Shown piece by piece: positions 13,363-54,732 of a DNA stretch of 64,000 nucleotides. Positions within the stretch are counted from its first letter, which is position 1, and each line of letters begins with the position of its first letter. The notes beneath the pieces were generated by a model, which had not been told where the DNA came from, made no database searches, and saw only the letters and a list, made by a program, of their open reading frames with translations. This DNA is from Anaerolineae bacterium (GTDB lineage Bacteria; Chloroflexota; Anaerolineae; B4-G1; DUEL01), in the NCBI GenBank assembly GCA_041082215.1, contig JBDOIF010000093.1:69504-133503 (forward strand). Direction: 5' to 3'. Position numbers and translations under genes: made by a program.

Positions 13363-14088
<726 letters not shown>

Positions 14089-40665: not shown

Positions 40666-40690
40666 CAATAGGAAAAGCAGGCGAAGGCAG

Positions 40691-42856
40691 ATGGCTGAGA
40701 ATTTGAACCCTTCGATCGAGGAGATACTGGCCCAGTTCCGAACCGCCGGGGAGCGGGAGCTGGTCCGGCGGGCCTATGACTTTGCCGTTCTCTCCCATTC
40801 CGGGCAGTTCCGCAAGTCGGGCGAGCCGTACATCAACCACGTGCTGGCTGTGGCCGGGCTGCTGGCGGACCTGCGGATGGACGCCGAGACGGTGGCGGCG
40901 GGCCTGCTCCACGATGTGGTGGAAGACTGCGGCGTGCCGGTAGGGACGCTGGAGGAGCAGTTCGGACCTGTCATCGCCTCGCTGGTGGACGGGGTGACCA
41001 AGCTGCAGGAGATCAACCGGCTGGGCCGGATGGGGGCCGAGGACCGGGATGAGCGGGAGCTGGAAAGCCTGCGCAAGACCTTCCTGGCGATGGCGCGAGA
41101 CGTGAGGGTGATGCTCATCAAACTGGCCGACCGCTTGCACAACATGCGCACCCTCGATGCGCTCCCTCCCGACCGGCAGCTACGGATCGCCCGTGAGACA
41201 ATGGAGATTCACGCTCCGCTGGCCAACCGGCTGGGCATCTGGCGCTGGAAGGGAGAGCTGGAGGACCTGGCTTTCCGTTATCTGCAACCGGAGGTGTATC
41301 ATCAGATCGCCAGCCAGCTGGCGGCCCATCGGGAGGAAAGGGAAAAAGAGATCGAGCCGTACATCGCGATGCTCGACCATCACCTGCGGCTGGAGGGGAT
41401 CGAGGCAAGGATCACCGGCCGCCCCAAGCACATCTACAGCATCTACCGCAAGATGCAGCGCAAGCAGATCCCCCTGGAGCGGGTCTACGACATCCGCGCC
41501 GTCCGCGTCATCGTGGACACCATTCCCGATTGTTACCACGTCCTGGGAATCGTCCACAACCTCTGGACCCCCATCCCCGGTGAGTTCGACGACTACATCG
41601 CCACGCCGAAGGAGAACATGTACCAGTCCCTCCACACAACAGTGGTGGGGATGAACGGGAAGACGCTGGAGGTGCAGATTCGGACCTACTATATGCACCG
41701 CATCGCTGAATACGGCATCGCCGCCCACTGGCGGTACAAGGAGGGAACCCGTCGGGACCGGGAGTTTGAGGAGAAGATCGCTGCCCTGCGGGCGCAAATC
41801 GAGGCCCGGAGCGAGGCGGAGGACGCAAGGGAGTTCGTGGAGGCGATGCAGGCCGACCTCTTCGAGGACAGGGTCTATGTGTTCACCCCCAAGGGGAAGA
41901 TCATTGACCTGCCGGCCGGTGCAACGCCCATTGACTTCGCCTACTACGTCCATACAGAGATCGGCCATCGCTGCCGGGGAGCGAAGGTGAACGGCCTGTG
42001 GGTGCCGCTGGATTACGTCCTCAAGACCGGCGACCAGGTGGAGATCATCACCGCCAAGCGGGCATCTCCCAGCCGGGACTGGCTTAACCCGGACCTGGGA
42101 TATGTCCGGACCGCGCGTGCCCGCACCAAGATCCGCCGCTGGTTCCGCCAGCAGGACCGGGATAAGAACATCTCGCTGGGGCGGGCGATCCTGGAGCGGG
42201 AGTTGAAGCGGCTGGGGCTGACGGGGATGGCGCATGAGAAAGTGGCCAGCCTCATGGGGTATGAGAACGTCGAGGACTTCCTGGCCGCGATCGGCTTCGG
42301 CGACATCAACAGCCAGCAGATCGCCTCCCGTGTGGTGGAGGTGACGAGGAGGGAAGCGGAATCCGAACTGGAAGTCCCGCCGGTCGTGCCGGCCCGACCG
42401 GAGGCGACGCCCGAGATCCACGTCCTGGGCACGGGGGGGTTGCTCACCCGTCTGGGCCGCTGCTGCAACCCCATCCCCAACGAACCGATCGTCGGCTACG
42501 TCACCCGGGGGCGGGGGATCACCGTCCACCGGCGGGAGTGTCCCAACGTCCTCAACGTGCGGGACCCCGAGCGGCTGATTGAGGTCAGTTGGGGGAAGCA
42601 GGCCCGCACCTTTCCCGTCCTGATCTCCGTGCTGGCCTACGACCGGACAGGGCTTCTGCACGACATCAGCGGGGTCTTCGCCAAAGAAGGAATCAACATC
42701 TCCAACCTCAGCATCAGCCGGAAACAGAACCTCGCCAGCCTGTACATCACGCTGGAGGTGACCGACATCGGGCAGTTAGGACGGGTGCTGGCTCGTATTA
42801 ACAAAGTACCGAACGTGATCGAGGCGCAGAGGCAGCAGGCCTCCAGTTCCAGATAA
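40691..42856 (+). CDS. rel: Bifunctional (p)ppGpp synthetase/hydrolase (long RSH)
   Basis: RKSGEPYINH, LLHDVVED, KLADRLHNMRTL, YQSLHT, EVQIRT, TGS (TPIDFAY), CCNP, ACT. Confidence 0.96.
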   Translation: MAENLNPSIEEILAQFRTAGERELVRRAYDFAVLSHSGQFRKSGEPYINHVLAVAGLLADLRMDAETVAAGLLHDVVEDCGVPVGTLEEQFGPVIASLVDGVTKLQEINRLGRMGAEDRDERELESLRKTFLAMARDVRVMLIKLADRLHNMRTLDALPPDRQLRIARETMEIHAPLANRLGIWRWKGELEDLAFRYLQPEVYHQIASQLAAHREEREKEIEPYIAMLDHHLRLEGIEARITGRPKHIYSIYRKMQRKQIPLERVYDIRAVRVIVDTIPDCYHVLGIVHNLWTPIPGEFDDYIATPKENMYQSLHTTVVGMNGKTLEVQIRTYYMHRIAEYGIAAHWRYKEGTRRDREFEEKIAALRAQIEARSEAEDAREFVEAMQADLFEDRVYVFTPKGKIIDLPAGATPIDFAYYVHTEIGHRCRGAKVNGLWVPLDYVLKTGDQVEIITAKRASPSRDWLNPDLGYVRTARARTKIRRWFRQQDRDKNISLGRAILERELKRLGLTGMAHEKVASLMGYENVEDFLAAIGFGDINSQQIASRVVEVTRREAESELEVPPVVPARPEATPEIHVLGTGGLLTRLGRCCNPIPNEPIVGYVTRGRGITVHRRECPNVLNVRDPERLIEVSWGKQARTFPVLISVLAYDRTGLLHDISGVFAKEGINISNLSISRKQNLASLYITLEVTDIGQLGRVLARINKVPNVIEAQRQQASSSR

Positions 42857-42870
42857 GGAAGGGAATAGAA

Positions 42871-45255
42871 GTGGACGCCATTATCGTAACGTACAACCTG
42901 CTCGGCACGGGGCCGGGGGCCTTCGTTTACCATTTCCTCATCCTGCTGGCCCTGGAGGCGGTGGCCGGGATCGCCTTCACCGAATACCGGCGCACCCGCA
43001 ACCCCGATCAGTACCGGCTCCTCGTGGCCTTCTCCATACTGTTCCTGCTCCGCGTCCCGCTCCTGGCCGGCAGCCTTCTGGGAGCGTCCATCACCGCCCC
43101 CCTTCTCTACGCCCTGGAGGTGGTCAGCCTGGCCCTGCTGGGATGGGCCTTCCTTGCCCCACTGATCGGCCGCCGCGCTGGGCGGTGGTTCCTGACCGCC
43201 AACCTTCTGACTGTGGCCGCAGTCCTGGCCCTCTTCTTCCCTCTCTGGCAGCGGATGCTTTCCGCCGCTCCCTTCTTCGAGTACATCGCCTTCTGGCAGC
43301 AGCCCCTCTGGGACCTGTGGGCTACATTGCTCGCTCTGACGACAGCCGTCGTTCTCCTGACCCGACAGAGGCAGACGGTGCACCTCTTCCCGGCCGTCGC
43401 CTTTCTTCTCCTCACGCTCGGCAACGGACTGATCCTGGCAGACCAACTGGGGCTGGGGCGGCTGGTCAACCTGCTTGGCTATCCGCTGCTGGCACTGGCT
43501 GTCTATCGGGCAGCCCTCCAGGACCTGTGGGCAGCGCGGGAGGAGCTGGAGAGGTTGAGCGAGGGGTCCCTCCGCCAGACCCAGGAGCTTCTTTTCACCG
43601 TGGAGGTCAGCCGCGCCCTGGGCGAAACCCTCGACCTGAACGCCGTCCTCCAGCAGGTCGTGGAGGCTGTCGCCCACGCCCTGCACGCCGACCAGTCAGC
43701 CATCTTCCTTTCCGAAGACGACGAGACCCTCCAGCTCGCTGCCCGATATACCCCCCTTCCGGCTCGCGCGCGGCCGGAGGAGTCCCCCAGGGTGGCCGTA
43801 GACGCCCAGCCGGCCCTGGCCTATGCAGTGCAGCGTCGGCGACAGCTCCTTCTCAAACCGGAGACCGCCACACCTCAACTCCGGTCCCTCTATGCCCTGC
43901 TGGGCAGCCAGAAGGTCGGCCCTCTTCTCATCCAGCCCCTGATCCGGCAGCGACGGGTGCTGGGTGTGCTGGTGGTGGGCAACGACCACAGCGGGCGGTC
44001 CTTCGAAGAGCGGGAGGCCCGCCTCTGCCACTCCATCGCCGCTCAGGTCAGCGCCGCCATAGACAACGCCCGCCTGTACCGACGCCTGGAAGAGCAGGCC
44101 CGGCGGCTGGCAGACGCCCTGACCCGCACGGAGGAAGCGGTCGGCCTGCGAGAGGCCATTCTGGAAAGCATCGTCGAGGGGGTGATCGTCACCGACAACA
44201 AAGGGCATGCCGTGCTGTTGAACGACACGGCGGCGAACATTCTTGGGGCCAGGAAAGAGCAGCTCCTGGGCCGGCCCCTCCAGCGGCTCCTTGAACCGAC
44301 CGCCTGGGGGCAGCCCGCCGATATGAGCCGGCTGATGGAATCCCCCACCCCACTCCAGACCCTTCTGGAGCTGGAGGGGAAACGGATCCACGTGAGCGCA
44401 GCCCCCGTCCACGTCTCCTCCGGCGAACGGGTCGGAACGGTGGCAGTGCTGCGGGATGTGACCGGGGAGATGCAGGCGGAGCAGGCCAAACGGGAATTCA
44501 TCGCCACCATCTCCCACGAACTCCGCACACCCCTTACCGCCATCCTTGGCTACGCCGAAGCCCTCCACAGTGGAATGGCCGGGGAGCTGACCGGAACGCA
44601 GAAACGGCTCGTCCGCACCATCCACGAAAATGCCCGCCGGATGACCGCGATGGCCAACAACCTGATCGCGCTGGCAGAGGCGGAGCGGGGCCGCCTCGAG
44701 CTGGAGTACAGGGAGACCGACCTCCCGCTGATCATCGGCGAGACCCTCCAGGCCTTTATTCCCCAGATGAAGGCCCGCCAGTTGACCTGGGAACTGGAGA
44801 TCGAAGATGGCTTCCCGCCCATCGAAGCAGACCCGGAGCGGATCCGTCAGGTGGTCGCCAATCTGCTGAGCAATGCGGTGAAGTTCACCCCGCCGGGCGG
44901 CCACATCACCATAGGCACGGCGATTGTGCGGGAGAAGGGTATAACCGATCCTCACTTCTGCCGGCTCTGGGTTGCGGATACCGGCATCGGCATTCCAGTG
45001 GAGGAGCAGCACCGGATCTGGGAGCGGTTCTACAGCGCGGAGGAGCCACTGAAGACAGAAGCCGGAGGGCTGGGGGTGGGGCTGGCTATCGTCAAGTCCC
45101 TGGTGGAGGCCCACCACGGCCGCGTATGGGTTGACTCGGCCCCCGGCGAGGGGAGCACCTTCACCCTGCTCCTCCCCATCCGCCGCCCCCCAGCCCCCTT
45201 CACGACGGGAGAGCCAGACTACCCCGATATGGAAGCGGCCACGGGCGCGGGTTAG
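42871..45255 (+). CDS. Multi-TM GAF-PAS sensor histidine kinase
   Basis: About 7 TM, GAF (AIDNARLY), PAS (ESIVEGVIVTD), SHELRTPLT, NLLSNAVKFT, GLGVGLAI. Confidence 0.92.
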   Translation: MDAIIVTYNLLGTGPGAFVYHFLILLALEAVAGIAFTEYRRTRNPDQYRLLVAFSILFLLRVPLLAGSLLGASITAPLLYALEVVSLALLGWAFLAPLIGRRAGRWFLTANLLTVAAVLALFFPLWQRMLSAAPFFEYIAFWQQPLWDLWATLLALTTAVVLLTRQRQTVHLFPAVAFLLLTLGNGLILADQLGLGRLVNLLGYPLLALAVYRAALQDLWAAREELERLSEGSLRQTQELLFTVEVSRALGETLDLNAVLQQVVEAVAHALHADQSAIFLSEDDETLQLAARYTPLPARARPEESPRVAVDAQPALAYAVQRRRQLLLKPETATPQLRSLYALLGSQKVGPLLIQPLIRQRRVLGVLVVGNDHSGRSFEEREARLCHSIAAQVSAAIDNARLYRRLEEQARRLADALTRTEEAVGLREAILESIVEGVIVTDNKGHAVLLNDTAANILGARKEQLLGRPLQRLLEPTAWGQPADMSRLMESPTPLQTLLELEGKRIHVSAAPVHVSSGERVGTVAVLRDVTGEMQAEQAKREFIATISHELRTPLTAILGYAEALHSGMAGELTGTQKRLVRTIHENARRMTAMANNLIALAEAERGRLELEYRETDLPLIIGETLQAFIPQMKARQLTWELEIEDGFPPIEADPERIRQVVANLLSNAVKFTPPGGHITIGTAIVREKGITDPHFCRLWVADTGIGIPVEEQHRIWERFYSAEEPLKTEAGGLGVGLAIVKSLVEAHHGRVWVDSAPGEGSTFTLLLPIRRPPAPFTTGEPDYPDMEAATGAG

Positions 45256-45262
45256 CCTCCGG

Positions 45263-45757
45263 CTACCCCTTCGCAAGGGCCAGGGCCAGCGCGGCCGCCT
45301 CCTCCGCGCTTTCGGCGTAGCGGATGGGGGGCAGCGGATGGCCTTCCCGTTCGACCCGCCAGGTCCCCAGCCCCACCACCGGCACGCCGAAGCGAAGCGC
45401 ATAGGCGATCTCGGAGAGCGTACCGAAGCCTCCACCGATGGCGATCACGGCCTGCGCTGTGCGGACAATGATGACGTTGCGGGCCTCCCCCATCCCGGTG
45501 ACGATGGGCAGGTCTACATAAGGGTTGGCCTCCTGCGCGTCGGGGCCGGGGAGGATGCCGACGGTGAAGCCACAGGCCTGTTTGGCCCCCCGGCAGGCCG
45601 CCTCCATCACGCCCCCCCGACCGCCACAGATGAGCACCGCCCCGCCCTCGGCCAGCGCCCTCCCCACCGCCTCCGCCGCTGCCATCTCTCCAGGCGTGGG
45701 CGTCGCCCCCCCGACGACAGCGATGATCGGCCTGTCTCTCATCCCCCTACCCATCAT
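45263..45757 (-). CDS. TIGR00725 / LOG-like Rossmann-fold nucleotide-binding protein
   Basis: CGGRGGVMEAACRGA, TVGILPG, TGMGEARN, GGGFGTLSE; alternative start 45742. Confidence 0.88.
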   Translation of the reverse strand: MMGRGMRDRPIIAVVGGATPTPGEMAAAEAVGRALAEGGAVLICGGRGGVMEAACRGAKQACGFTVGILPGPDAQEANPYVDLPIVTGMGEARNVIIVRTAQAVIAIGGGFGTLSEIAYALRFGVPVVGLGTWRVEREGHPLPPIRYAESAEEAAALALALAKG

Positions 45758-48083
45758 AGCGCCGCAGATACGCCACTGCCTTTTCCTCTTCGGCGTTCAT
45801 CACCACCTCCAGGAGCCGACCGCCCGACGCCGCCCGCACATCAATCAATTTGACGTAGCGGGCATAAGCCGCGCTGTCGGGCAGGAAGGCTGGAAGCGCA
45901 TTGGGGCTCTCCTCGAAAAAGGCCCGGTTGAATTGCGCCCCCTCATCGTCTGGATAGAGGGGAAGGGGGTAAATGTTAGCCTCCACCAGGTCCTGAAAGA
46001 AGTGCGTGCCGTAGGAGACCTCAGGGGTTCCCTCCGGGCCAGCAAAGGCGATCTCGACCAGCATCGAGGTGTTGTAGATGTCGGCGTAGCTGACCTTGAC
46101 CCCCAGGTCAATATTGGAACTCCCCCACCGACCCGGGCCGATCAGGATGTAGCGGTGTCCCTCGAGCCGCTTGTTCAGCCGCCCGATGACCCGCCCGATC
46201 TCATACCGGGTAGCGGGGTCCGGGGCCCCGGCATAGCGGGCCGGGTCAACATAGACCACGTATTCGATGCGGGAGACAAGGCCCTCCGGCACCATTCGGG
46301 TGGCGATAAAGACAATGTCCTCAGCAGGAATGTACGAAGGAATCTGGGAAGCAGCCTGTTCCGGCCGGCTGCTGAGGGGGCGGCACTGGAGGAGGTGGAG
46401 GGTAAAGCGATAATGGGGGCGGTCCGGGAGGACATCCAGGGTAAATTCGATATCAACTGGTCGGCCATAGGCCCGCTCCAGCTTCCGCATGACGGCTTTC
46501 ATCAGGTCGGCGAAGTCACTCTCGCCAAGCAACCGGTCGAAGGTCAACACCAGCGACCGGGGCGGAAGGGCCGGCTCGCGGAAGCGCATAGGGTGGAGGT
46601 ATTCCCCCTCGTCCACCGAGGCCAGAAGTTCGATCCCGGCATAATCGCCGCGGAGGATCTCGGCTACCGGCAGTGTCCTGAAGGCATTCTCTTCCACGTC
46701 AATGACGTCCATGAAGTGCTGGGAGTATTTTCGGACCTCGTCCAGGGTAACCTCGGGACGGAGCCGGGGGTGGCTGAGGGCGACCATACGGGGGTAATCG
46801 TTAGCCACCCGCTCCACGGCGCGGGTGCCCAGACCGACGACGATGCGCAGGAAGCCGTCCTCACGACGGATCCTCCGGTTCCATCGGAAGGGATTTCGCC
46901 CGAAGCCTACCCCAGCCACCAGGGGGAAGAAATAGCGGCCGAAGCGGGAACCCTCAACTCGCTGGATGAGCACGGCCATCCGCTCGTCGTAGTCCAGGAG
47001 CCCCACCTGTCGGCGGTAGAAAAGGGCGTTCGGATTCAGCGTGCTGGCGTAGACGCGGCGGACCGCTTCGAGCAATGCCTCCAGGTTCTGGGCAAGGCTG
47101 CCCTGGTTGGGGCAGAAGAAGCTGTCGTACTTGCCCGCGAAGGAGTAGCCGAAGTTATCCTCCAGAAGGCTGGAGGAACGGACAACCAGCGGGGTCCCCT
47201 CCATCTCTTCCACCAGCTCTGCCAGCCGGTCCACCACCTCTTCCGGGAACCGGCCGCGGAGAAAGTGCCGACAGATTTCTGGGTAGTCTGCCTCGATCTC
47301 CTCCCGGCTCTTGTATTTTTGATCAGAAAAGCGGAACAGCTCATTGAGGGCCATGAAGTCGTAGAAGACGTCGGCGCCGATGAAGTAGGAATCGGGGATA
47401 ACGACATACTGGCCGAACGGGAACGGGTCGTCCGGCTCCTCCCGCTGGAGGACCTTGTAGGCGAGCATCATCCCTGCTGCCTTGCCGCCGATCTTCCCCC
47501 GTCCGATACGGCGGCGGTAAATCTCTTTCAGGTCGTGGATGTCGAAGTACTCCCGCGCCACGCCGACGAAGTTAAGCTGATCGCTGACCATACCGCGAAT
47601 GAGGACGACGATGATCTGCTGCAGGTGATGGCGCACCTTCGCCTTCTTTTCCGTAGGCAGCCGCTCGTATTCCTCCGCCTGGGCGAAGAGCATGTCCCAG
47701 GGGGCCAGTTCGGGGTTGAAGGTAAGGACGATCTCCTCCCCCGGCTTGCGTGCGCTCAGGGCGGAGCGCACGATCTCCTCGAAGAGAGCGTGAGGGAGAT
47801 TGAGGGCAAAGTAGAAATCGGTCAGGTGGTCCCGGACGATGCGCAGCCGCTCCGCCCACTCCTCCGGCGATTCCTGGATATAGGGTTCGGTCAACCCCTC
47901 CTTCCTCTGAGTGAGAACAGCCTTGCTGCGGACCTCCTCTTCAAACTGTTCGGGGGTGATGATCCCGCGGGCGAACAGCTCCTGACGCATCCGTTCCCGT
48001 ATCCTGCGCGCCAGGATAGGGTATTCGGAGAGCTTCAGATAGACCTCCATCACCTTGGGCATTCGATGGATATCGAAGGACAT
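45747..48083 (-). CDS. PEP synthase/PPDK N-terminal (ATP-grasp) domain protein lacking swivel and PEP-utilising domains
   Basis: IGGKAAG, VRSSSLLED...SFAGKY, MAVLIQ, GLGTRAV; C-term GPGRWGS and SYGTHFFQDL; ATG at 48083 after GGAGG. Confidence 0.85.
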   Translation of the reverse strand: MSFDIHRMPKVMEVYLKLSEYPILARRIRERMRQELFARGIITPEQFEEEVRSKAVLTQRKEGLTEPYIQESPEEWAERLRIVRDHLTDFYFALNLPHALFEEIVRSALSARKPGEEIVLTFNPELAPWDMLFAQAEEYERLPTEKKAKVRHHLQQIIVVLIRGMVSDQLNFVGVAREYFDIHDLKEIYRRRIGRGKIGGKAAGMMLAYKVLQREEPDDPFPFGQYVVIPDSYFIGADVFYDFMALNELFRFSDQKYKSREEIEADYPEICRHFLRGRFPEEVVDRLAELVEEMEGTPLVVRSSSLLEDNFGYSFAGKYDSFFCPNQGSLAQNLEALLEAVRRVYASTLNPNALFYRRQVGLLDYDERMAVLIQRVEGSRFGRYFFPLVAGVGFGRNPFRWNRRIRREDGFLRIVVGLGTRAVERVANDYPRMVALSHPRLRPEVTLDEVRKYSQHFMDVIDVEENAFRTLPVAEILRGDYAGIELLASVDEGEYLHPMRFREPALPPRSLVLTFDRLLGESDFADLMKAVMRKLERAYGRPVDIEFTLDVLPDRPHYRFTLHLLQCRPLSSRPEQAASQIPSYIPAEDIVFIATRMVPEGLVSRIEYVVYVDPARYAGAPDPATRYEIGRVIGRLNKRLEGHRYILIGPGRWGSSNIDLGVKVSYADIYNTSMLVEIAFAGPEGTPEVSYGTHFFQDLVEANIYPLPLYPDDEGAQFNRAFFEESPNALPAFLPDSAAYARYVKLIDVRAASGGRLLEVVMNAEEEKAVAYLRRYDG

Positions 48084-48133
48084 CCTGCTTCTCCTCCATT
48101 CCCTGCGAGCCAGGGGCGAGGCAAGCCCTGTCC

Positions 48134-49396
48134 CTAAAGATACCGCAACCAGATATACCCCATCGCCAGAAGCAGAGACACGAAGGTCGTCAGCACGCCG
48201 TAGCCTGCAAAATGCCAGAAGCGAATGGGATGGCCGCTCCGCTCCGCCAGCGAGGCCACGACCACGTTGGCCGACGCACCCACCAGCGTGGCGTTGCCGC
48301 CCAGGCAGGCCCCCAGCGCCAGCGACCACCACAGCGGCTCTACCGGCATCGCCCCTCCCAGGCTCTCCACCAGCGGGATCATCGTCACCGTGTAGGGGAT
48401 ATTATCCACGATGCCAGAGACCAGCGCCGAGATCCACAAAAGCACCATAGATGCCAGGCGGACGTTCCCATCCACCACGCGCAGGGCCGCCTGCGCCACC
48501 GCCCGGATGACCCCCGCCTGCACCAGTCCCTCCACCACGATGAACAGGCCGACGAAGAAAAAGAGGGTGGTCCACTCCACCTCCCGGATCACAGGATGGG
48601 GGTCCGTCCGGCTCCACAGCAGGAGGACGGTTGCCCCGGCCAGGGCGACGGTGGCGGACTCTATGTGCAGCGCGCCGTGGAGCAGGAAACCGATGATCAC
48701 CCCGGCCATCACGATGACCCCTTTGCGCAGGAGGGGCCAGTTGGTGATCAGCTCCTCCGCCTCCAGCGCGGAGAGGTCGGCGGCCCGTACTGGCCGTGCC
48801 CGCAGCTCCTTGCGGAACATCAGCCAGGCCAGGCCGAAGAAGGCCAGCAGGATGATGGTGCTGATCGGCCCCATATGGGCGATAAACGTGGCGAAGTCTA
48901 TCCCCGCCGCGCTGCCGATGAGGATGTTCGGCGGGTCGCCGATGAGCGTCGCTGTCCCGCCGATGTTGGAGGCCAGGATCTCAGCGATGAGAAAAGGCAG
49001 GGGGTTCAGGCGCAGTTGCCCCGTCACGAACAGAGTGACCGGCACGACCAGGATGACGACCGTCACGTTGTTCAAGAAGGTTGAGGCAAAAGCGGTAACC
49101 AGGCAGAGGATGAGCAAAATCCACACTGGGCGGCCCCGGCCCAGCCGCACGGCCTGCACGGCCACCCACTGAAACAACCCTGTTTCCTGCAGGATGTTCG
49201 TGATGACCATCATCCCTACCAGCAGGAAAATGACGTTCCAGTCTATGGACCGGAATGCCTCTGCCTGGGTGACCACCCGCAGCAGGATCATCGCCACCCC
49301 GCCCAGCATGGCAGAGGTCGTCCGATGGACCCGCTCGGTGACGATGAGGATATAGGTGACGACAAAGACAACGGCGGCAATCCAGGTCTGGTTCAC
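48134..49396 (-). CDS. ArsB/NhaD/SLC13-family ion transporter
   Basis: SNIGGTATLIGDPPN, VDNIP, GACLGGNATLVGASAN; GTGA overlap with the upstream gene. Confidence 0.9.
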   Translation of the reverse strand: MNQTWIAAVVFVVTYILIVTERVHRTTSAMLGGVAMILLRVVTQAEAFRSIDWNVIFLLVGMMVITNILQETGLFQWVAVQAVRLGRGRPVWILLILCLVTAFASTFLNNVTVVILVVPVTLFVTGQLRLNPLPFLIAEILASNIGGTATLIGDPPNILIGSAAGIDFATFIAHMGPISTIILLAFFGLAWLMFRKELRARPVRAADLSALEAEELITNWPLLRKGVIVMAGVIIGFLLHGALHIESATVALAGATVLLLWSRTDPHPVIREVEWTTLFFFVGLFIVVEGLVQAGVIRAVAQAALRVVDGNVRLASMVLLWISALVSGIVDNIPYTVTMIPLVESLGGAMPVEPLWWSLALGACLGGNATLVGASANVVVASLAERSGHPIRFWHFAGYGVLTTFVSLLLAMGYIWLRYL

Positions 49397-50268
49397 CGGA
49401 CCTCCCCTGTTTCCGATTCCCGCCGGGCCAGGCAGTGGACCAACAGGCCCAGCAGGTCCACATATCCCACCACATGGTACATCTCATCCACGACCGGCAG
49501 GCCGGAGAGGCGATGTTCGTGCATCCGCATCAGCGCCTGCTTGAGGGTATCCGTCTCCCTCACCCAGACCGGCTGTTGCATGCCGTCGGCGGCGGTGCGG
49601 ATGCGGGTCTTGGCCGCAAACTCCGCCACCCGCTCCAGGTCTGTGACCTCCCGCAGCAGCTCCTCCGGCAGGATGTAGAAGAGAAGGTCATCGGCGATGG
49701 CGTAGATATCCAGAAGTCCGGCGAGCTGTCCTTCCTCCGTCACCACGCAGGCGACGCGGACGCCGGGATGGGCAGCCAGAGCGCGCGCCACCTCGTCCAG
49801 CGGGGCGTCGAAGGGGACGGTGACCGGTTCCAGGCCGGCCATACGCGCTACCTCTCCCACTTCCATCTCCCGCCACCCCACACAAACCGGTCGGGGCGGC
49901 GCCTTTTCCGCTTCGGGACCGGCCGGTCGCTCTTTCCGCAGCCCGCGCGCCTCGGCGACAGGGAGGACCAGGAGGATGCCGCTGTTGGGGCGCTCGAACC
50001 CGCCCACCACCCGCTCCGCCTCGGCGACAGCGCGCGCCAGCAGCGTTTCGTCCTCGATAGCCGTCAGCAGGGTGCGCCGACGGATCTCCTCGACCTCAAA
50101 GAGTCGCTCCAGCGCCCCCAGCCCCACCCGCTCCAGCCAGGTATGGGCCCGGTACGCGCCGACGCTTTCCAGAATCGTCGCCCTCGGCACGCCAGCGTCC
50201 CACCAGGCCCTCAGAAGGTTCGGCAGAGCCTTGACATCGTCCAGGATCACAACTAGAAGGTATACCAT
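49393..50268 (-). CDS. PII-like domain fused to a CBS pair
   Basis: N-term YLLVVILDD...AGVPRATILESVG...SGILLVLPVAEARGL; C-term CBS (LSGLPVVDE...VGYV); ATG at 50268. Confidence 0.75.
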   Translation of the reverse strand: MVYLLVVILDDVKALPNLLRAWWDAGVPRATILESVGAYRAHTWLERVGLGALERLFEVEEIRRRTLLTAIEDETLLARAVAEAERVVGGFERPNSGILLVLPVAEARGLRKERPAGPEAEKAPPRPVCVGWREMEVGEVARMAGLEPVTVPFDAPLDEVARALAAHPGVRVACVVTEEGQLAGLLDIYAIADDLLFYILPEELLREVTDLERVAEFAAKTRIRTAADGMQQPVWVRETDTLKQALMRMHEHRLSGLPVVDEMYHVVGYVDLLGLLVHCLARRESETGEVR

Positions 50269-50438
50269 TCCTCTCTCCTTATCGTCCTGCGCCATCACAA
50301 AAACTACGTCCTGAATGGACCAGAAAGCAGCTTCTGTGTTCTCCGTGTCTCTAAGGTGAGCAATTATTGAGTATTTATGATACCACAGTTGCAGGGGCGA
50401 GGCCAGCTTCATCGCCGGAGGAGAACGCGGAGGCCCAC

Positions 50439-50476
50439 AAAAAGAGAGCCCCTGCCAGCCGGCCACTGGCAGGGGC
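50439..50476 (-). terminator. Intrinsic terminator after gdh
   Basis: Perfect 11-bp stem GCCCCTGCCAG / CTGGCAGGGGC followed by UCUCUUUUU on the minus strand. Confidence 0.75.
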
Positions 50477-50515
50477 CTTCTCAGGAGGATGGCCGCTGGT
50501 CAGGTCAGGCCCGGA

Positions 50516-51850
50516 TCAGGGGAAGATCCCCCGTGCACGGACCGCTTCGGCGACCCTGGACACGGCCAGCATGTACGCGCCGAGCCGCAGCGGGACCTTT
50601 CGCTCCTGGCAGAAGTCCCAGACCTCGGCGAAGGCGCGCACCATGATCGTCTTGAGGTTCCGGTTCACCTCTGCCTCGTCCCAGAAAAAGTACTGCAGGT
50701 CCTGTACCCACTCGAAGTAACTGACCACCACCCCTCCGGCGTTGGCCAGGATGTCGGGCACCACGACGATGCCCCGGTCCTGCAGGATGTCGTCGGCCTC
50801 GCGGGTGGTAGGGCCGTTGGCGCCCTCGACGATCATCCGCGCCCGGATGTGCGGGGCATTGTCGGCGCGGATCTGGTGTTCCAGCGCCGCCGGTATCAGC
50901 ACATCAACGTCGCTGACCAGCAGTTCGTCATTGGTAATGTAGTCCACTCCGGGCGCCTGATACCCCTCAAGCAGGTGTCGGGGATGGTTGGCCACATGCT
51001 GGTTGATGCCGGGTATGTCCAGGCCAGCCGGGTTGTACAGCCCGCCGCTGACGTCGCTCACAGCCACGATCTTACAGCCCATCTGATGCAGGAAGGTCGC
51101 CGCAAAGGAGCCGACATTGCCGTACCCCTGCACGGCTACGGTCGTGTCGGCAAGCCTGCGGCGCTTCCGCTTGAGCAGTTCGGCGGTAACGATCGCCACG
51201 CCGCGGCCGGTCGCTTCCTTCCGGCCGAGCGAGCCTCCCAGCGGGATCGGCTTGCCGGTGACGATCTCCATGACCGCCTTGCCCTCCAGCATGGTGACCG
51301 TATCGGCGATCCAGGCCATCACCTGCGGGTTGGTGTTGACATCGGGCGCGGGGATATCCCGCCGGGGGCCCAGGATGGGCAGGATGGCAGCGGTGAACCG
51401 CCGTGTCAGACGGCACAGCTCATCTTCGGATAACCCGCTCGGATCGCACTCCACCCCACCCTTGGCCCCGCCGTAGGGGATCCCCACCACAGCGCACTTC
51501 CAGGTCATCAACGCTGCCAGCGCCCGGACCTCGTTGAGGTTCACTTCGGGATGGTAGCGGATTCCCCCCTTGCACGGGCCTCGGGCGCTGGAATGCTGAA
51601 CCCGGTAGCCGGTAAACACCTCGATGTGGCCATCATCCATCACCACAGGGATAGAAACGGTCAGCTCTCGCTCCGGCCGGCGCAGGATCATGTGGATGCC
51701 CGGGTCCAGATTCAGCCTCTGGGCCACATCATCCAGCTGGGATAACACCGTGTCCCACAGGTCCTGCTTTGGAGTTTGAAGGAGGGTCAGCCCAGAAGGC
51801 GTCGCTACAGGCAGTTGCTCCAGACGGTGTTCCATAGCCGCTCCCTCCAT
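50516..51850 (-). CDS. gdh: Glu/Leu/Phe/Val dehydrogenase, probably glutamate dehydrogenase
   Basis: GPCKGGIRY, MTWKCA, PYGGAKGG, DIPAPD, QGYGNVG, EGANGP, NAGGVVVSYFEW; alternative start 51835. Confidence 0.93.
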   Translation of the reverse strand: MEGAAMEHRLEQLPVATPSGLTLLQTPKQDLWDTVLSQLDDVAQRLNLDPGIHMILRRPERELTVSIPVVMDDGHIEVFTGYRVQHSSARGPCKGGIRYHPEVNLNEVRALAALMTWKCAVVGIPYGGAKGGVECDPSGLSEDELCRLTRRFTAAILPILGPRRDIPAPDVNTNPQVMAWIADTVTMLEGKAVMEIVTGKPIPLGGSLGRKEATGRGVAIVTAELLKRKRRRLADTTVAVQGYGNVGSFAATFLHQMGCKIVAVSDVSGGLYNPAGLDIPGINQHVANHPRHLLEGYQAPGVDYITNDELLVSDVDVLIPAALEHQIRADNAPHIRARMIVEGANGPTTREADDILQDRGIVVVPDILANAGGVVVSYFEWVQDLQYFFWDEAEVNRNLKTIMVRAFAEVWDFCQERKVPLRLGAYMLAVSRVAEAVRARGIFP

Positions 51851-52398
51851 TACGCCCGCTTCCAGACCTCGATGGGTCGGTGGTGGAGCGAGGAGAGCAG
51901 AGCTCCGAAGCCGGTGCGGGTCTCCACTTCCACATCCTCTACCACCTGGCAGTCCAGTGCATGCGAGAACTGCGAGCGGTCCACCAGGTCGCCCAGCATC
52001 TCAGCCAGCGCCCGGTCCAACCCTGCCAGCAGAGAGTCCAGGGCGGCGGTCTTCTGCCGAGCCCAGACGATCAGGTGGGTCAGAGGCACTTTCCTGGCCG
52101 CGCCCAGGCAGGCATCCTCCGGGGTAGCCTCGTCGTCGTAGAGGTAGACCGCCCTGATCCCCTCATCCAGTTCCCCCAGGCACCCGGCTACCTCCCTGGC
52201 CAGCCCGTACTGGAAATAGCCACAGGCGTGGCTATCGCCCCGTCGCAGGCAGTCCGCCGCAGCCTCAGGGCTGCCCAGCGCCATCTTCTGCGCGCAGAAC
52301 TCCAGCGCCCGGCTGAGGGCAACCTCAGCAACCTCCGCTACTTCGGAAGAAGGGGTCTGCAGCGCCAGCTTCACATTGCTGCTTGTTTCAGTCGTCAT
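51850..52398 (-). CDS. Hypothetical protein, possible degenerate nucleotidyltransferase-like fold
   Basis: GGGAGG SD; TAATG overlap with gdh; helix-IRAVYLY-HLIVW-helix-LDCQVV pattern. Confidence 0.75.
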   Translation of the reverse strand: MTTETSSNVKLALQTPSSEVAEVAEVALSRALEFCAQKMALGSPEAAADCLRRGDSHACGYFQYGLAREVAGCLGELDEGIRAVYLYDDEATPEDACLGAARKVPLTHLIVWARQKTAALDSLLAGLDRALAEMLGDLVDRSQFSHALDCQVVEDVEVETRTGFGALLSSLHHRPIEVWKRA

Positions 52399-52457
52399 CT
52401 CTACCTCCCTTATCAGAGATTCTCAGCATCCCATTGCACCATCTCAACTCTGCTCAT

Positions 52458-52524
52458 ATCATAGCATGGGAGGGATGAGAAAGTCATAAAAAGCGCCTCC
52501 GTCCTCCTGAAAAATGCATGAAAA
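52458..52524 (-). promoter_or_regulatory. Extended -10 promoter with four phased TTTTCAT-like half-sites
   Basis: TGC-TATGAT at 52458-52466; half-sites at 52518, 52507, 52486 and 52475. Confidence 0.6.
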
Positions 52525-52556
52525 AACGGCGACCCCTGCCTCAACGGGGCCGCCGT
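52521..52556 (-). terminator. Probable terminator after the response regulator
   Basis: ACGGCGGCCCC / GGGGTCGCCGT stem followed by a U-run on the minus strand. Confidence 0.6.
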
Positions 52557-52578
52557 CTGCTCCCGCACATCGGGCGTC

Positions 52579-53292
52579 TCAGCTCTGATCCCCTCCCTCC
52601 TCTTCCGGGCAGGCCAGCATGTATCCGACCCCAGGGCAGGTGAGGATCAGGCGCGGATGAGAGGGATCCTCTTCCAGCTTGCGGCGCAGGTAGCGGATGT
52701 AGGCCCGCAGGTAGTCCACATCGTCCCGATACTCGGACCCCCACACGGCGGTCAGCAGTTCCTCATGCAGGACGACGCAGTTGGCATGGAGGGCCAGATA
52801 TCGCAACAGGGCATATTCTGTACGGGTAAGGGAGACCCGCTCGCCGCGCACCCGGACAGTGCGTCGAGCAAAATCTATTTCCAGGTCCCCACAGGTCAGG
52901 TGGGTTGGCCGCAACTCCTCGGGCCGCTGCGCCCTCCTCAACACAGCTCCTACCCGGGCCACCAGCTCCCTGGCGCTGAAGGGCTTTGTCAGGTAATCAT
53001 CAGCCCCCACATCAAAACCGCGCAGGATGTCGCTTTCCTGAGCCTTAGCGGTGAGCATGATCACGGGGACATCCGAGAACTCCCGGATACGCGAGCAGAC
53101 CTCGTACCCATCGGGGCCGTGCGGAAGCAGGACATCCAGCAGGACCAGGTCGGGTTGCTCCAGGGCGACCATCTCAAGGGCCGATTCGCCGTTGACCGCC
53201 GCGACTACCTGGTAGCCGATTGCCCTGAGCACCTCGCTCACCAGCCGAACCACCCGTGGTTCGTCATCAACGACCAGAATCTTCTCGGCCAT
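52579..53292 (-). CDS. OmpR-family (KdpE-like) response regulator
   Basis: VVDDE, LLDVLLP, GADDYLTKPF, YLRAYIRYLRRKLEEDPSHP. Confidence 0.93.
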   Translation of the reverse strand: MAEKILVVDDEPRVVRLVSEVLRAIGYQVVAAVNGESALEMVALEQPDLVLLDVLLPHGPDGYEVCSRIREFSDVPVIMLTAKAQESDILRGFDVGADDYLTKPFSARELVARVGAVLRRAQRPEELRPTHLTCGDLEIDFARRTVRVRGERVSLTRTEYALLRYLALHANCVVLHEELLTAVWGSEYRDDVDYLRAYIRYLRRKLEEDPSHPRLILTCPGVGYMLACPEEEGGDQS

Positions 53293-53306
53293 GCTGCTGT
53301 CCCTCC

Positions 53307-54584
53307 TTACTCATCGGTCCTATCCCAATCGGGCCGGGTCAGGGGAAGGGTGAAGTAGAAAGTGCTCCCCTGTCCCACCTGGCTCTCGGCCCAGATCTGA
53401 CCGCCGTGGCTTTCCACAATGGTGCGGGCGATGGGCAGCCCCAGCCCTGAGCCGACCACATGGCGGCCCAGGCCCGACTTGATGCGGAAGAACTTTTCAA
53501 ACAGGCGGTTCAGGTGCTCCGGAGCGATACCGACCCCCTGGTCGGCCACGCTGATGACCACGTGGTCCGGACGGACCTCGCCCCGCACCACCACCAGCCC
53601 TCCATCGGGGGAGTACTTGACTGCGTTGTCCAGCAGATTGCGCAGAACCTGCATAATCCGGTCCGGATCAGCCTCCACCAGAGGAAAATCCTCCGGAAAG
53701 TCCACCACCAGCCGGTGTTGACGGCTGCGGCGGGCTATGTCGTCCACCACAACTCTGACCAGACGGGGGAGCATCACCGGCTGGACCTCCAGTTTGAGGA
53801 AGCCAGCATCAATGATGGACGACTCCAGCAGATCGTGAATGAGGTCCTGGAGGACATCGCACTCTTCGTCAATGATCTCCAGGAACTCCCGCTGTGTCTC
53901 AGGGCTGAAAGAGGCCTCTTCCATCAACAAGGCGGTAGAGTAGCCTTTGATGGAGGTCAGTGGAGTTCGCATCTCGTGGGCCAGGGTGGAGATCAGTTCC
54001 GCCTTGAGGCGGTTGGCTTCGCTGAGGGCCTGGGCAGCCTGCAGCTCCTCCCTCAGATGGAAGTTCTCGATGGAAAGGGCTATCAGGTCGGCAACGTGCT
54101 GAAAGAAGGTCAGCTCCGATGGCCCAAAGGCATGCGGCTTTCTTCGGTTTTCCAGGATCAGCACCCCTACCCTGGCCTGACCGGTGATAAGTGGCAAAGA
54201 GATGGCGCTTTGGGCCTGATCCAGGCCCAGGGCCGCCCTGGCGAACCATTCGCGGTTTTCCGGGCTCATATCCTCCCGTGCAGCCGCGACGGCTTCGGGA
54301 GTGGAATATACCTGCGCCTGGCCGCTCTCAAAGGCCTTCCCGCTGACGGCCTCGCCGGGCATAAGACGGATGTGCCGCAGGGAGGAGAAATCATACCCCT
54401 GCGCCGCTTTAACCGCCAGCCGGCCGTCTAACGGATCGTAGATCAGCAGGACACCGGCATCCGTTACCTCCAGCTTTTCAACCAGGCAACGGAGCAGCCC
54501 CTGCATCATCCTGTCCAGGTCCCGCTCCGTGGCCACGATCTTGGCGATCTCCAGGATCGTCAGCAGTTGTTGCTCTTTATCCAT
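53307..54584 (-). CDS. Cytoplasmic GAF-domain histidine kinase
   Basis: No TM segment; GAF; AHEMRTPLT, NLLDNAVKYS, DQGVGI, GSGLGL; start 54584 (or 54602) overlaps ccmD. Confidence 0.92.
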   Translation of the reverse strand: MDKEQQLLTILEIAKIVATERDLDRMMQGLLRCLVEKLEVTDAGVLLIYDPLDGRLAVKAAQGYDFSSLRHIRLMPGEAVSGKAFESGQAQVYSTPEAVAAAREDMSPENREWFARAALGLDQAQSAISLPLITGQARVGVLILENRRKPHAFGPSELTFFQHVADLIALSIENFHLREELQAAQALSEANRLKAELISTLAHEMRTPLTSIKGYSTALLMEEASFSPETQREFLEIIDEECDVLQDLIHDLLESSIIDAGFLKLEVQPVMLPRLVRVVVDDIARRSRQHRLVVDFPEDFPLVEADPDRIMQVLRNLLDNAVKYSPDGGLVVVRGEVRPDHVVISVADQGVGIAPEHLNRLFEKFFRIKSGLGRHVVGSGLGLPIARTIVESHGGQIWAESQVGQGSTFYFTLPLTRPDWDRTDE

Positions 54585-54732
54585 CACCGCCCTCTGCATC
54601 ATCCTTCTTCAGCCTGGCCTCCAGTCTGGCGATCTCTTGCTCTATCCGCCGCTGTCGGGCCCAGATAGAGAGGACCAGGACAAAGGTCAACCCCCAGAAG
54701 ACACCATAAGCCGCCACCAGATAAACCGGCAT
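54577..54732 (-). CDS. ccmD: Heme exporter protein D (51 aa, below ORF-track cutoff)
   Basis: MPVYLVAAYGVFWGLTFVLVLSIWARQRRIEQEIARLEARLKKDDAEGGDG; AAGGAGGT SD; follows ccmC. Confidence 0.8.
   Translation of the reverse strand: MPVYLVAAYGVFWGLTFVLVLSIWARQRRIEQEIARLEARLKKDDAEGGDG

Follow-up and report, generated by a model that had tools for sequence, protein, structure and literature searches.

The window, a stretch of 64,000 nucleotides from an Anaerolineae bacterium (Chloroflexota), contained eight co-oriented ORFs on the minus strand (45263..54732), all of which had been placed correctly by the preliminary description. Genes encoding CcmB and an ABC ATPase were located upstream of the eight genes. 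The following genes and elements were identified, given in their order on the minus strand:

53307..54602, minus strand: sensor histidine kinase (HK), 431 aa, with GAF, HisKA and HATPase_c domains (Pfam)
52579..53292, minus strand: response regulator (RR) of the OmpR/PhoB family, 237 aa, with REC and Trans_reg_C winged-helix domains (Pfam)
52521..52554, minus strand: second terminator-like element, after the RR gene (hairpin at about 52528-52554 followed by U6)
52458..52526, minus strand: operator/promoter, four direct TTTTCAYG repeats followed by an extended -10 (TGCTATGAT)
51850..52398, minus strand: unk182, a 182-aa protein with no match in Pfam or NCBIfam
50516..51850, minus strand: glutamate dehydrogenase (gdh), 444 aa, with ELFV_dehydrog and ELFV_dehydrog_N (Pfam)
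50447..50477, minus strand: strong terminator-like hairpin after gdh (13-bp stem, 9 GC pairs, T-tract)
49393..~50295, minus strand: PII-like/CBS gene, CBS pair only by Pfam
48134..49396, minus strand: CitMHS/ArsB-type permease
45747..48083, minus strand: PPDK_N protein, 778 aa, with PPDK_N (Pfam, 180 bits)
45263..45757, minus strand: SLOG gene (SLOG cluster 4/TIGR00725, above cutoff)

The histidine kinase had no obvious membrane segment and was of the soluble type. The response regulator, initially labeled KdpE-like, was not specifically KdpE; its top NCBIfam matches were YycF, RpaB, and MtrA, every one below cutoff, and it was therefore regarded as a generic OmpR-family protein. GDH scored 504.8 bits against GdhB_Halo and 500.2 bits against GdhA_Arch in NCBIfam, both under the equivalog cutoffs, and K94, K118, K130, D170, and the Gly-rich loop 242-247 were invariant in the GDH alignment (A2). 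As for the gene described as a PII-like/CBS fusion, the CBS part was found by Pfam and the PII-like part is only a lead (Atlas feature score of 0.83, below the tool's mark of 0.9); Pfam P-II was not detected in its product at E ≤ 0.01. The three overlaps reported earlier were confirmed (1 nt for unk182/gdh, 4 nt for CBS/permease, and 11 nt for PPDK_N/SLOG), and the terminator reported after gdh was real by pattern (50477-50447). The terminator-like element after the RR gene had a folding energy of -26.6 kcal/mol (z -3.8; none of 200 shuffles as good). The pattern scan did not pick it up, probably owing to its loop of 9, the upper limit of that scan being 8. Its T-run extends into the first operator repeat.

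The gene order HK-RR-unk182-gdh was complete in 21 of 29 unk182-anchored loci, which belonged to different genera of the class Anaerolineae; gdh was located directly 3' of unk182 in 23 and RR upstream in 26 of these loci. The same order was found in 14 of 20 loci of a wider set, in which the genes flanking the cassette were not conserved. In an HK-anchored set, 11 of 14 informative loci had HK upstream of RR-unk182-gdh, with HK orthologues sharing 55–88% identity, and the identity of RR across cassette loci was 68–92%. Gene-neighborhood comparison thus ties gdh to unk182 and the two-component system, and, judged by gene order, HK, RR, unk182, and gdh constitute a conserved cassette in the class Anaerolineae, although its distribution is patchy (69 of 401 class genomes).

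The TTTTCAYG repeats before unk182 were spaced by 11, 21, and 11 bp. The fourth repeat occupies the -35 position, and -10 and -35-like hexamers were found by the pattern scan. An ungapped operator register was common to 25 of 27 RR-unk182 spacers, with variants in the other two (PWM). The whole 3.53-Mb genome contained a single match, before unk182, and this search revealed no copies before other genes of the locus; no match was obtained in 919,287 control bases. The operator was also found in independent loci, and 12 loci of the fused type described below had weaker copies with the same architecture upstream of gdhA.

The unk182 protein represents a new family, with a predicted degenerate fold resembling minimal nucleotidyltransferases (MNT). 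The family occurred in 69 of 401 class genomes, with 491 cluster representatives, and in 3 of 301 genomes of a phylum sample, host genome counted. In the AF2 model (pLDDT 86.6), the best fold matches of residues ~52-182 were of the MNT type (Z 7.9, rmsd 3.5, 95 aa; and Z 6.5; Foldseek probability 0.97, E 0.03), a middling match since Z 7.9 falls within the tool's 'common' range. Active minimal nucleotidyltransferases carry G[SG] and acidic-pair motifs, both of which were absent by eye from the matching strands of unk182 (alignment A1). In loci without gdh, unk182 was encoded within or beside glutamate-synthase-type or NuoF-GltD-type clusters, where it followed an operator-like motif copy and kinase homologues (50–75% identity). 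From this genomic context, unk182 appears to track glutamate-forming enzymes. In another class of the phylum, gdh was followed by unk182, and no kinase or regulator match was detected in that 3.5-kb locus.

Complex prediction for GDH and unk182 was positive, with ipSAE values of 0.67, 0.76, and 0.79 compared with 0.00 for the best control. Of 157 solved complexes, 116 attained the ipSAE mark that this pair reached, as did 2 of 215 mismatched pairs; this calibration is only rough because GDH was modeled as a monomer with alignments made for this analysis. The runs agreed in at least 82% of contacts, with a partner pLDDT of at least 84. The predicted site of unk182 was the catalytic cleft of GDH, where the interface included residues 168-175 (with the invariant D170), 210-211, the Gly-rich loop 242-247, 266-268, and 343-349.

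The PPDK_N protein had a maximal ORF of 861 aa, and its likely start gives 778 aa. In the AF2 model (pLDDT 86.1), residues 161-575 matched rifampin phosphotransferase (RPH; Z 25.1) and HpeI (Z 18.2), and residues 583-776 matched the PPDK phosphoryl-carrier domain (2fm4; Z 6.3, rmsd 3.7, 117 aa), with the sequence GTH694FFQDL invariant. The protein is thus not ATP-grasp-only, as it had been called, and also has a C-terminal domain resembling the swivel domain of PPDK. Neither PEP-utilizers nor a PEP/pyruvate domain was detected by Pfam, and Pfam and structure comparison gave no sign of a known substrate-binding domain, including a RIF-binding-like one. In 42 of 80 loci, including that of Longilinea arvoryzae KOME-1, an unk182 domain formed the N-terminal head of PPDK_N/swivel-domain enzymes (unk182::PPDK_N). 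A gene for GdhA-type NADP-GDH was located directly upstream in 22 of these 42 loci, and gdh was convergent downstream in 3. Four loci with the order RR-gdhA-unk182::PPDK_N (L198, L215, L219, and L230) were preceded by HK homologues, with 38–46% identity covering the GAF domain.

The PPDK_N protein of the window was 45% identical to P0121, whose head is the unk182 domain, and its own helical N-terminus was not unk182-like (hhalign probability 0.3). As stated in the preliminary description, truncated PEP-synthase-like genes do recur beside gdh within Anaerolineae: gdh adjoined PPDK_N homologues in 8 of 59 loci, where PPDK_N had no fixed neighbor, and PPDK_N-type genes in 35 of 80 loci of the second set. 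No gdh was present within 8 kb in 11 of 42 fused loci with full flanks and in 23 of 38 unfused loci. In addition, no PPDK_N gene was found within about 8 kb in 20 other cassette loci. Because of this last result and its own N-terminus, the pathway membership of the window's PPDK_N protein is guilt by association at the family level. The earlier idea of a link from GDH to the uncharacterized protein and to the ATP-grasp protein was supported by the cassette, the unk182::PPDK_N fusion, and the complex prediction, and a functional tie of gdh to unk182, to the two-component system, and, by way of domain fusion and recurrent neighborhoods, to the PPDK_N family is supported.

A mechanism can be proposed in which the GAF domain of HK would sense a cytoplasmic metabolite, and phosphorylated RR, by predicted binding to the TTTTCAYG repeats, would activate transcription of unk182-gdh. 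unk182, probably a catalytically dead protein of nucleotidyltransferase fold, would dock, as modeled, in the GDH cleft that separates the substrate domain from the NAD(P) domain, and from this position it may gate or inhibit the enzyme. In the least certain step, the dikinase-like PPDK_N enzyme would act on the GDH-unk182 complex via ATP and the swivelling H694, which would couple energy status to GDH activity. Taken whole, the view that the locus consists of three or four juxtaposed units, one of them a conserved GDH control cassette with an unk182 gate and dikinase-like coupling, seems to us moderately probable. It counts against the mechanism that an enzyme and its own inhibitor in one operon are not obviously logical.

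The eight genes had originally been read as one module through which energy or nitrogen status would be coupled both to GDH and to the transport of ions or carboxylates. They share one orientation with little space between them, in three pairs the stop of one gene overlaps the start of the next, and adenine nucleotides or 2-oxoglutarate are common ligands of CBS and PII-like domains. However, comparative genomics split the module. The PII-like/CBS gene and the permease formed an independent pair, kept in 28 of 29 loci, and gdh was beside this pair in none of 29 other loci. The transport link has no comparative support. None of 59 loci had the permease, CBS, or SLOG gene next to a PPDK_N homologue, the 80 further PPDK_N loci contained none of the three under the filters used, and none of 20 loci had them near the cassette. 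Further, strong terminators part the units, and the CBS, permease, PPDK_N, and SLOG genes lacked a preceding operator copy. Such a module is very improbable and largely refuted by the neighborhood data, according to which the SLOG gene is a local neighbor only and the CBS-permease pair a separate one. We attach just as little weight to the opposite extreme, in which the cassette order would be a frozen accident of inherited synteny in Anaerolineae with no functional coupling: the near confinement of the family to one class agrees with it, but the same partners occurred in at least four arrangements, with three GDH lineages, and also as a gene fusion, and the cis element was shared while the flanking genes were not.

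Two other readings, each unlikely in our judgment, retain a coupling of another kind. unk182 might be a feedback connector reporting to the GAF kinase or RR, or might assist folding or assembly, in which case it would not regulate GDH activity. RR adjoined unk182 slightly more often than gdh did, unk182 stayed behind the kinase and regulator genes and the operator-like motif when gdh was replaced by GltS-type genes, and P0026 fuses unk182 to a DksA/TraR zinc finger. Against this, the GDH-unk182 prediction passed with controls at zero, the fusions were on the enzyme side (PPDK_N and polyferredoxin-MvhD) with no kinase or regulator fusion among the 10 longer unk182 matches scanned, and the gdh-unk182 pair of the other class had no such genes matched in its locus. 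Alternatively, PPDK_N/swivel enzymes may be small-molecule dikinases phosphorylating a metabolite that GDH produces or consumes, e.g., a 2-oxo acid in its enol or hydroxyl form. On this reading, the sole role of the unk182 domain would be to hold the enzyme at the active site of GDH for channeling, and unk182 as a free protein would act as a competitor or remain as a leftover adaptor. The closest solved ATP-grasp relatives, RPH and HpeI, are small-molecule dikinases, as described in the relevant part of PMC12167813, and both the docking site in the catalytic cleft and the partnership of three GDH lineages with PPDK_N/swivel enzymes would suit this scheme. Nevertheless, the 778-aa protein lacked a detectable RIF-binding-like domain, and a protein filling the cleft would block the active site, not feed it.

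No published account of such a system was found in the literature search. Novel elements are the small protein partnered with GDH, the operator, and the two-component system. The PPDK_N protein resembled PEP-utilizing dikinases (rifampin phosphotransferase, HpeHI, PEP synthase, and PPDK) in its ATP-grasp domain and in a C-terminal domain that superposed on the PPDK phosphoryl carrier with an invariant Gly-Thr-His, and the known enzymes use a swivelling-His mechanism, as outlined in PMC12167813. In contrast, the PPDK_N protein lacked detectable PEP-utilizers, PEP/pyruvate, and known substrate-binding domains, the N-terminal heads vary (helical in the window, an unk182 domain in relatives), and in the genome the partner is GDH instead of a catabolic pathway. 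MNT antitoxins such as MntA (2rff, 8xeh, and 7aer) were the best fold matches of unk182, which differs from them by an extra N-terminal three-helix part and its metabolic context; no HEPN partner gene was present among the annotated neighboring genes.

In PhoB textbook logic, phased direct repeats stand in for the -35 box, and here too a gene for a winged-helix regulator adjoins 11-bp-phased direct repeats replacing this box. The putatively regulated genes are ammonium-assimilation genes, as with the nitrogen regulators NtrBC and GlnR. Unlike in these systems and PhoB/OmpR, the repeat sequence is different, the kinase is soluble and GAF-linked, and the element is present at one operon only in this genome.

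A dead-enzyme homologue regulating GDH, as proposed for unk182, is known from Thermus thermophilus, where an inactive adenine phosphoribosyltransferase homologue relays an adenine-nucleotide signal to GDH as a regulatory partner (PMC12301742, citing Tomita et al. 2019). That partner has a PRTase fold and activates GDH, and neither a two-component system nor a dikinase-like enzyme is known to be involved. By analogy, the GDH control system may also resemble the actinobacterial GarA/PknG switch, built from unrelated parts. According to the relevant part of PMC5448819, GarA (OdhI) binds GDH and glutamate synthase directly, inhibiting glutamate catabolism and stimulating GltS, and is switched off by the kinase. 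The two systems are not homologous: GarA belongs to the FHA proteins and PknG to the Ser/Thr kinases, whereas the predicted counterparts are a protein of degenerate nucleotidyltransferase-like fold (unk182) and a candidate enzyme of the PPDK_N/swivel dikinase-like type. Nevertheless, unk182 is likewise small and a predicted GDH binder, tracks clusters of the GltS type as well, and has its domain joined in fusions to an ATP-using enzyme of the phosphotransfer type.

Eight ORFs, all co-oriented on the minus strand, were found between positions 45263 and 54602 of the window, in agreement with the preliminary description, and the three start/stop overlaps it had listed were borne out by the coordinates.

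Features of the locus (window coordinates; source of the assignment in parentheses)
53307-54602, minus strand: GAF-HisKA-HATPase_c kinase (Pfam)
52579-53292, minus strand: OmpR-family regulator (Pfam; every named equivalog cutoff missed)
~52458-52526, minus strand: four-repeat operator, directly after the terminator of the regulator gene
51850-52398, minus strand: unk182, a protein of 182 aa without a Pfam or NCBIfam match
50516-51850, minus strand: ELFV glutamate dehydrogenase, gdh (Pfam)
50477-50447, minus strand: strong terminator after gdh (pattern)
49393-~50295, minus strand: protein with a C-terminal CBS pair (Pfam)
48134-49396, minus strand: CitMHS/ArsB-type permease (Pfam/NCBIfam)
45747-48083, minus strand: PPDK_N protein, 778 aa from the likely start (Pfam)
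45263-45757, minus strand: SLOG cluster 4/TIGR00725 protein (Pfam and NCBIfam)
40124-45255, plus strand: RelA/SpoT-type (p)ppGpp enzyme (910 aa), then a large membrane GAF-PAS histidine kinase (794 aa)

The kinase matched HisKA (65.3 bits) and HATPase_c (111.1 bits) and the regulator matched Response_reg (105.4 bits) and Trans_reg_C (84.0 bits), all above their Pfam cutoffs; by domain content, the pair is a two-component system composed of a HisKA kinase and an OmpR-family regulator. The earlier label of the regulator as KdpE-like was not retained, the KdpE score being 159.4 bits against an NCBIfam cutoff of 325. The best scores for other named equivalogs also fell short (YycF, 216.9 bits, cutoff 340; RpaB, 216.1 bits, cutoff 330). 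The gdh product is assigned by its sequence to the ELFV glutamate dehydrogenases, with ELFV_dehydrog_N and ELFV_dehydrog domains (282.3 and 192 bits) and with K94, K118, K130, D170 and the Gly-rich dinucleotide loop G242-G247 invariant in the GDH alignment; it reached no NCBIfam equivalog cutoff. The terminator previously noted behind gdh was recovered as a strong hairpin, and a second terminator-like hairpin (-26.6 kcal/mol, z -3.8), followed by U6, was located at the 3' end of the regulator gene.

The protein earlier called a PII-like/CBS fusion kept the CBS part of that name: CBS was the sole Pfam match at E<=0.01, and P-II (PF00543) was not detected in the N-terminal part. Its nearest Atlas clusters were PII-like, at 0.82-0.83, which is under the tool's mark of 0.9, and the PII-like label is treated as a lead only. 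The LOG-like annotation held, as the product passed the cutoffs of both LDcluster4 (152.8 bits, cutoff 26.3) and TIGR00725 (124.2 bits, cutoff 106.9), which places it by profile score in SLOG cluster 4/TIGR00725. Its gene and the end of the PPDK_N gene have 11 nt in common, and the RelA/SpoT-type and GAF-PAS kinase genes converge on it from the opposite strand.

All eight genes had been proposed to form a single GDH signalling module, and neighbourhood searches were anchored on four different genes. When unk182 and the CBS protein were used in pattern-based locus searches, no relatives came up, and six-frame genome searches were therefore used. Neighbour annotation was limited to ORFs with Pfam matches, greedy ORF calling having yielded some spurious ORFs on the opposite strand in high-GC loci, and the counts below come from genomes that are nearly all metagenome bins, with relatives that are not independent. 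Within the class, 69 of the 401 genomes carried a homologue of unk182 (53 of 216 genera), and such homologues were rare beyond it (3 of 301 genomes in the phylum sample, own genome included). Among 29 non-own unk182 loci, 23 had gdh as the next gene downstream and 26 had the regulator upstream, and kinase, regulator, unk182 and gdh followed in this order in 21. Of the 20 loci flanked by about 8 kb at either end, 14 kept the order, and the CBS, permease, PPDK_N and SLOG genes occurred in 0 of these 20. The kinase-anchored search returned 16 loci with orthologues of at least 55% identity; 11 of the 14 informative ones continued with the regulator and unk182, and also with gdh wherever the contig extended. 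Four hot-spring metatranscriptome runs were compared with the window (0 reads in both raw-read runs; short low-depth contigs in the other two).

The remaining genes showed other associations. The CBS protein had 57 strong matches in 54 of the 401 class genomes. Because the permease gene lay directly 3' of the CBS gene in 28 of 29 non-own loci and gdh adjoined it in 0 of 29, the CBS-permease pair is, on gene order, an independent conserved unit; the SLOG gene is a local neighbour. Hence, of the proposed module, the linkage between gdh and unk182 stood, but the inclusion of the CBS-permease pair and of the SLOG gene did not. The CBS and permease genes overlap by 4 nt in the window (48134-50295, minus strand), and in several loci, including L117 and L128, the N-terminal domain of the CBS protein is encoded once more, on its own, just upstream. 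The CBS protein may be a nucleotide-sensing regulator of the transporter, an arrangement that we take to be reminiscent of SbtB/SbtA.

Searches with the PPDK_N protein yielded homologues in 59 species loci, which, by their titles, belong nearly all to Anaerolineae. The sole recurrent specific neighbour was gdh, in 8 of the 59 loci (seven convergent downstream, one upstream); the recurrence of truncated PEP-synthase-like genes beside gdh, suggested in the preliminary description for anaerobes, was thus seen within Anaerolineae. None of the 59 loci had unk182, the SLOG protein, the CBS protein or the permease near the PPDK_N homologue, and with the filters applied no SLOG gene appeared in 80 further loci; the coupling of SLOG and PPDK_N genes may be specific to the own genome. 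In the window, the PPDK_N gene lies 2.4 kb past gdh, behind an unrelated gene pair, a position unique among the examined loci, and its tie to the cassette rests on the family-level association. The own genome also contained a second gdh (contig C45, 15659-16864), 50% identical to the cassette gdh. In other Anaerolineae, it is gdh genes of this lineage that are convergent to PPDK_N genes.

The spacer between the regulator gene and unk182 contained four direct repeats (consensus TTTTCAYG) with centres 11, 21 and 11 bp apart, followed on the 3' side by an extended -10 element (TGnTAnnAT), with the last repeat occupying the -35 position; in the window, the -10 hexamer lies at 52458-52463. This operator aligned without gaps in 25 of 27 spacers, and variants of it were found in the remaining two. 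A weight matrix recovered exactly one site in the 3.53-Mb own genome, no other gene of which was preceded by a site within the training score range, and the motif had 0 matches in 919,287 control bases. We infer that the neighbouring regulator binds the repeats, as a textbook member of the OmpR/PhoB family would. Locus L107 of genome G337 held three copies of the four-repeat motif (8880-8931, 11540-11591 and 13529-13580): 5' of unk182, on the opposite strand 5' of a BON/PRC-barrel gene, and in the gap between the regulator gene and a gene for a 217-aa protein without a Pfam match. The regulon may be larger in this genome.

Besides gdh, unk182 or the kinase/regulator pair were associated with other enzymes of glutamate formation. 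In G048, behind the kinase, regulator, operator and unk182 came a further copy of unk182, in fusion with a polyferredoxin-MvhD protein, and, downstream, FrhB-like, GXGXG and glutamate-synthase FMN-domain genes. In three further genomes (G112, G134 and G218), a same-strand kinase homologue (71% identity in G112, 50% in the other two) was encoded some 11 kb upstream of unk182, with a glutamate-synthase/Hdr-like operon in between; an operator-like motif headed that operon in G112 and G134, both of the loci scanned. Two kinase-anchored loci without unk182 carried NuoE and NuoF(-GltD) genes behind the regulator (L145, 2436-5572; L154, 4877-8539), and NuoE-like and NuoF-like genes also followed unk182 in L101 (9510-11642). 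One NuoF was fused to a GltD/Pyr_redox_2 domain (1060 aa). The operator motif was present 5' of the NuoE/NuoF genes in L145 and was not found above threshold in L154. These loci may encode a complex of the glutamate-synthase type, linked to NADH or ferredoxin and subject to the same regulator. Further, another class of the phylum showed the gene order gdh, then unk182. Given the glutamate-synthase-type, NuoF-GltD and gdh-unk182 contexts, unk182 therefore tracks glutamate-forming enzymes at the level of gene neighbourhoods.

An AlphaFold2 model of unk182, built from a 35-homologue alignment (pLDDT 86.6), contained an alpha/beta core preceded by three N-terminal helices. Its best matches in structure were minimal nucleotidyltransferases (MNT), namely 2rff (Z 7.9, rmsd 3.5, 95 aa) and 8xeh (Z 6.5), with superpositions covering 95-101 aligned residues, and Foldseek related the model to 7aer (probability 0.97, E 0.03); these values are rated middling by the tool's own notes. 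Foldseek returned nothing at E<=0.001, and Pfam NTP_transf_2 gave no match. In active MNT proteins, a G[SG] loop is combined with a second-strand [DE]x[DE] pair. In the homologue alignment, read with the secondary structure, the corresponding strand of unk182 (107-113) is xHLIVWx, without the acidic pair, and the preceding loop lacks a conserved G[SG]; unk182 is therefore called a degenerate nucleotidyltransferase-like fold outside the MNT family. A GarA/OdhI-type FHA regulator was considered and rejected, as unk182 had no such Pfam match and a different predicted fold.

Co-modelling of GDH with the 182-aa protein, which the preliminary description had proposed as a check, scored well above the controls. 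With alignments of 23 rows for GDH and 35 rows for unk182 (residues 15-182), the ipSAE values were 0.67, 0.76 and 0.79, and all three controls gave 0.00. In calibration, 116 of 157 solved complexes attained the tool's mark for this score, against 2 of 215 mismatched pairs, a calibration that is only roughly valid with custom alignments. The runs shared at least 82% of contacts, with a partner pLDDT of at least 84. The model supports a predicted binding of unk182 to GDH. The confident interface on GDH comprised residues 96-102, 136-143, 168-175 (with the invariant D170), 210-211, the Gly-rich loop 242-247, 266-268, 321-330, 343-349, 370 and 373, which in the model is the cleft that separates the substrate domain from the coenzyme domain; the catalytic roles of these residues are presumed from the Clostridium symbiosum enzyme. 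On unk182, the interface included an acidic loop (89-99) and a conserved C-terminal stretch (161-177), the latter also kept in fused unk182 heads. The pattern conserved at the C-terminal end is S-x-H-x-R-P-x-x-V-W-x-R.

Such fusions emerged from a profile search of 1.84 billion representatives, which yielded 491 relatives of unk182, mostly of about 180 aa. A Pfam scan of 10 longer relatives identified named partner domains in four. P0121 (854 aa) and P0146 were fusions of unk182 with PPDK_N. In P0109, an N-terminal unk182 domain was joined to a polyferredoxin with four Fer4 domains and to an MvhD/FlpD domain; the unk182::polyferredoxin-MvhD gene lies at 8757-10601 of L093 (G048), inside the operon with FrhB-like, GXGXG and glutamate-synthase FMN-domain genes. 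P0026 (315 aa) combined the domain with a C-terminal DksA/TraR C4 zinc finger, which hints that some family members touch transcription.

P0121 and the PPDK_N protein of the window were 45% identical over the ATP-grasp and C-terminal parts; no similarity to the unk182 profile was detected at the N-terminus of the latter (hhalign probability 0.3). The fused head was detected in 42 of 80 loci around P0121 relatives, including Longilinea arvoryzae KOME-1. Among these 42, gdh was immediately upstream on the same strand in 22, a different gdh was convergent downstream in 3, gdh was missing from 11 with full flanks, and flanks were too short in 6. Of the 38 unfused loci, 10 had gdh within 8 kb. The upstream GDH checked as a representative (L198) scored 687.5 bits against NF006929 (cutoff 536), the E. 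coli GdhA-type NADP-GDH. A weaker copy of the four-repeat motif preceded gdhA in 12 fused-type loci, a regulator homologue (56-61% identity) was present in 6, and a full-length GAF-kinase homologue (38-46% identity) lay 5' of the regulator in all four of these 6 with enough upstream sequence. By homology, these parts thus reappear in another architecture, consisting of kinase, regulator, operator, gdhA and unk182::PPDK_N. Fused-type loci often contained two more PPDK_N paralogues upstream of gdhA (L213, 2194-5433; equivalents in L208, L214, L216, L218, L220, L221, L226, L232 and L234), and some contained a second gdh. One paralogue in L213 had a C-terminal NTP_transf_2 nucleotidyltransferase domain.

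The PPDK_N protein of the window had been described as ATP-grasp-only. The ATP-grasp domain was clear (Pfam, 180 bits), and in the model built from 52 sequences (pLDDT 86.1) residues 161-575 matched rifampin phosphotransferase (RPH; Z 25.1, 298 residues) and HpeI (Z 18.2). Residues 583-776 could be superposed with the PPDK phosphoryl-carrier domain (2fm4; Z 6.3, rmsd 3.7, 117 of 128 residues) as well as with its counterpart in 2e28 (Z 5.7); Pfam PEP-utilizers, the swivelling phosphohistidine domain, was not found at E<=0.01. Within this swivel-like domain, the motif G-T-H694-F-F-Q-D-L was invariant, H694 across all 52 sequences, and the ATP-grasp-only label therefore needs correcting. The model terminates with the swivel-like domain; neither Pfam nor structure matches revealed a PEP/pyruvate-binding TIM barrel or other acceptor-binding domain, and a PDB sequence search gave only marginal PEP synthase matches (E 0.004-0.008). 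In sequence and model, the protein looks like a dikinase without its substrate domain. RPH and HpeHI (PMC12167813) are its nearest enzymatic relatives.

All of the evidence comes from comparison or from prediction. Genome comparison shows a four-gene cassette, an operator, a fusion and recurrent gdh neighbourhoods. The fusion links unk182 physically to the uncharacterised PPDK_N/swivel enzymes and suggests what these enzymes act on. In a mechanism built on these parts, the regulator would activate unk182-gdh from the repeats, and unk182 would sit in the GDH cleft as a gate or inhibitor. Dikinase-like enzymes, tethered by a unk182 domain or acting on free unk182, would alter the state of the cleft, a change that would be driven by ATP and the swivel histidine. 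Tentatively, the unk182 domain could be the GDH-docking head of histidine-swivel PPDK_N-type enzymes that switch GDH, and perhaps glutamate-synthase-type enzymes too, covalently or conformationally in an ATP-dependent manner; in cassette genomes, the free head would be co-made with GDH under a dedicated GAF kinase/regulator pair. We regard this reading as possible rather than probable. If true, it would represent a previously unknown post-translational control of the central carbon-nitrogen node.

GDH stands where carbon metabolism meets nitrogen metabolism, and little is known of its control except in a few model groups. The locus offers a one-operon regulon with a clear operator sequence suited to footprinting, and unk182 represents a new, small family, well folding in the models, with a concrete, falsifiable prediction, namely that it binds the catalytic cleft of GDH. 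A full-text literature search, with most subscription journals outside its scope, found no paper on such a GDH control system and nothing on GDH control in Chloroflexota.

A head that switches GDH, if real, would be analogous to GarA/PknG or to GlnE/glutamine synthetase, with unrelated parts. According to PMC5448819, GarA is a small protein that binds GDH and glutamate synthase and is switched by a kinase (PknG). It is the nearest functional analogy, and a functional one only, as the FHA domain of GarA/OdhI is missing in unk182. The dead-enzyme partner of Thermus GDH, as cited in PMC12301742, provides a second analogy to the role proposed for unk182.
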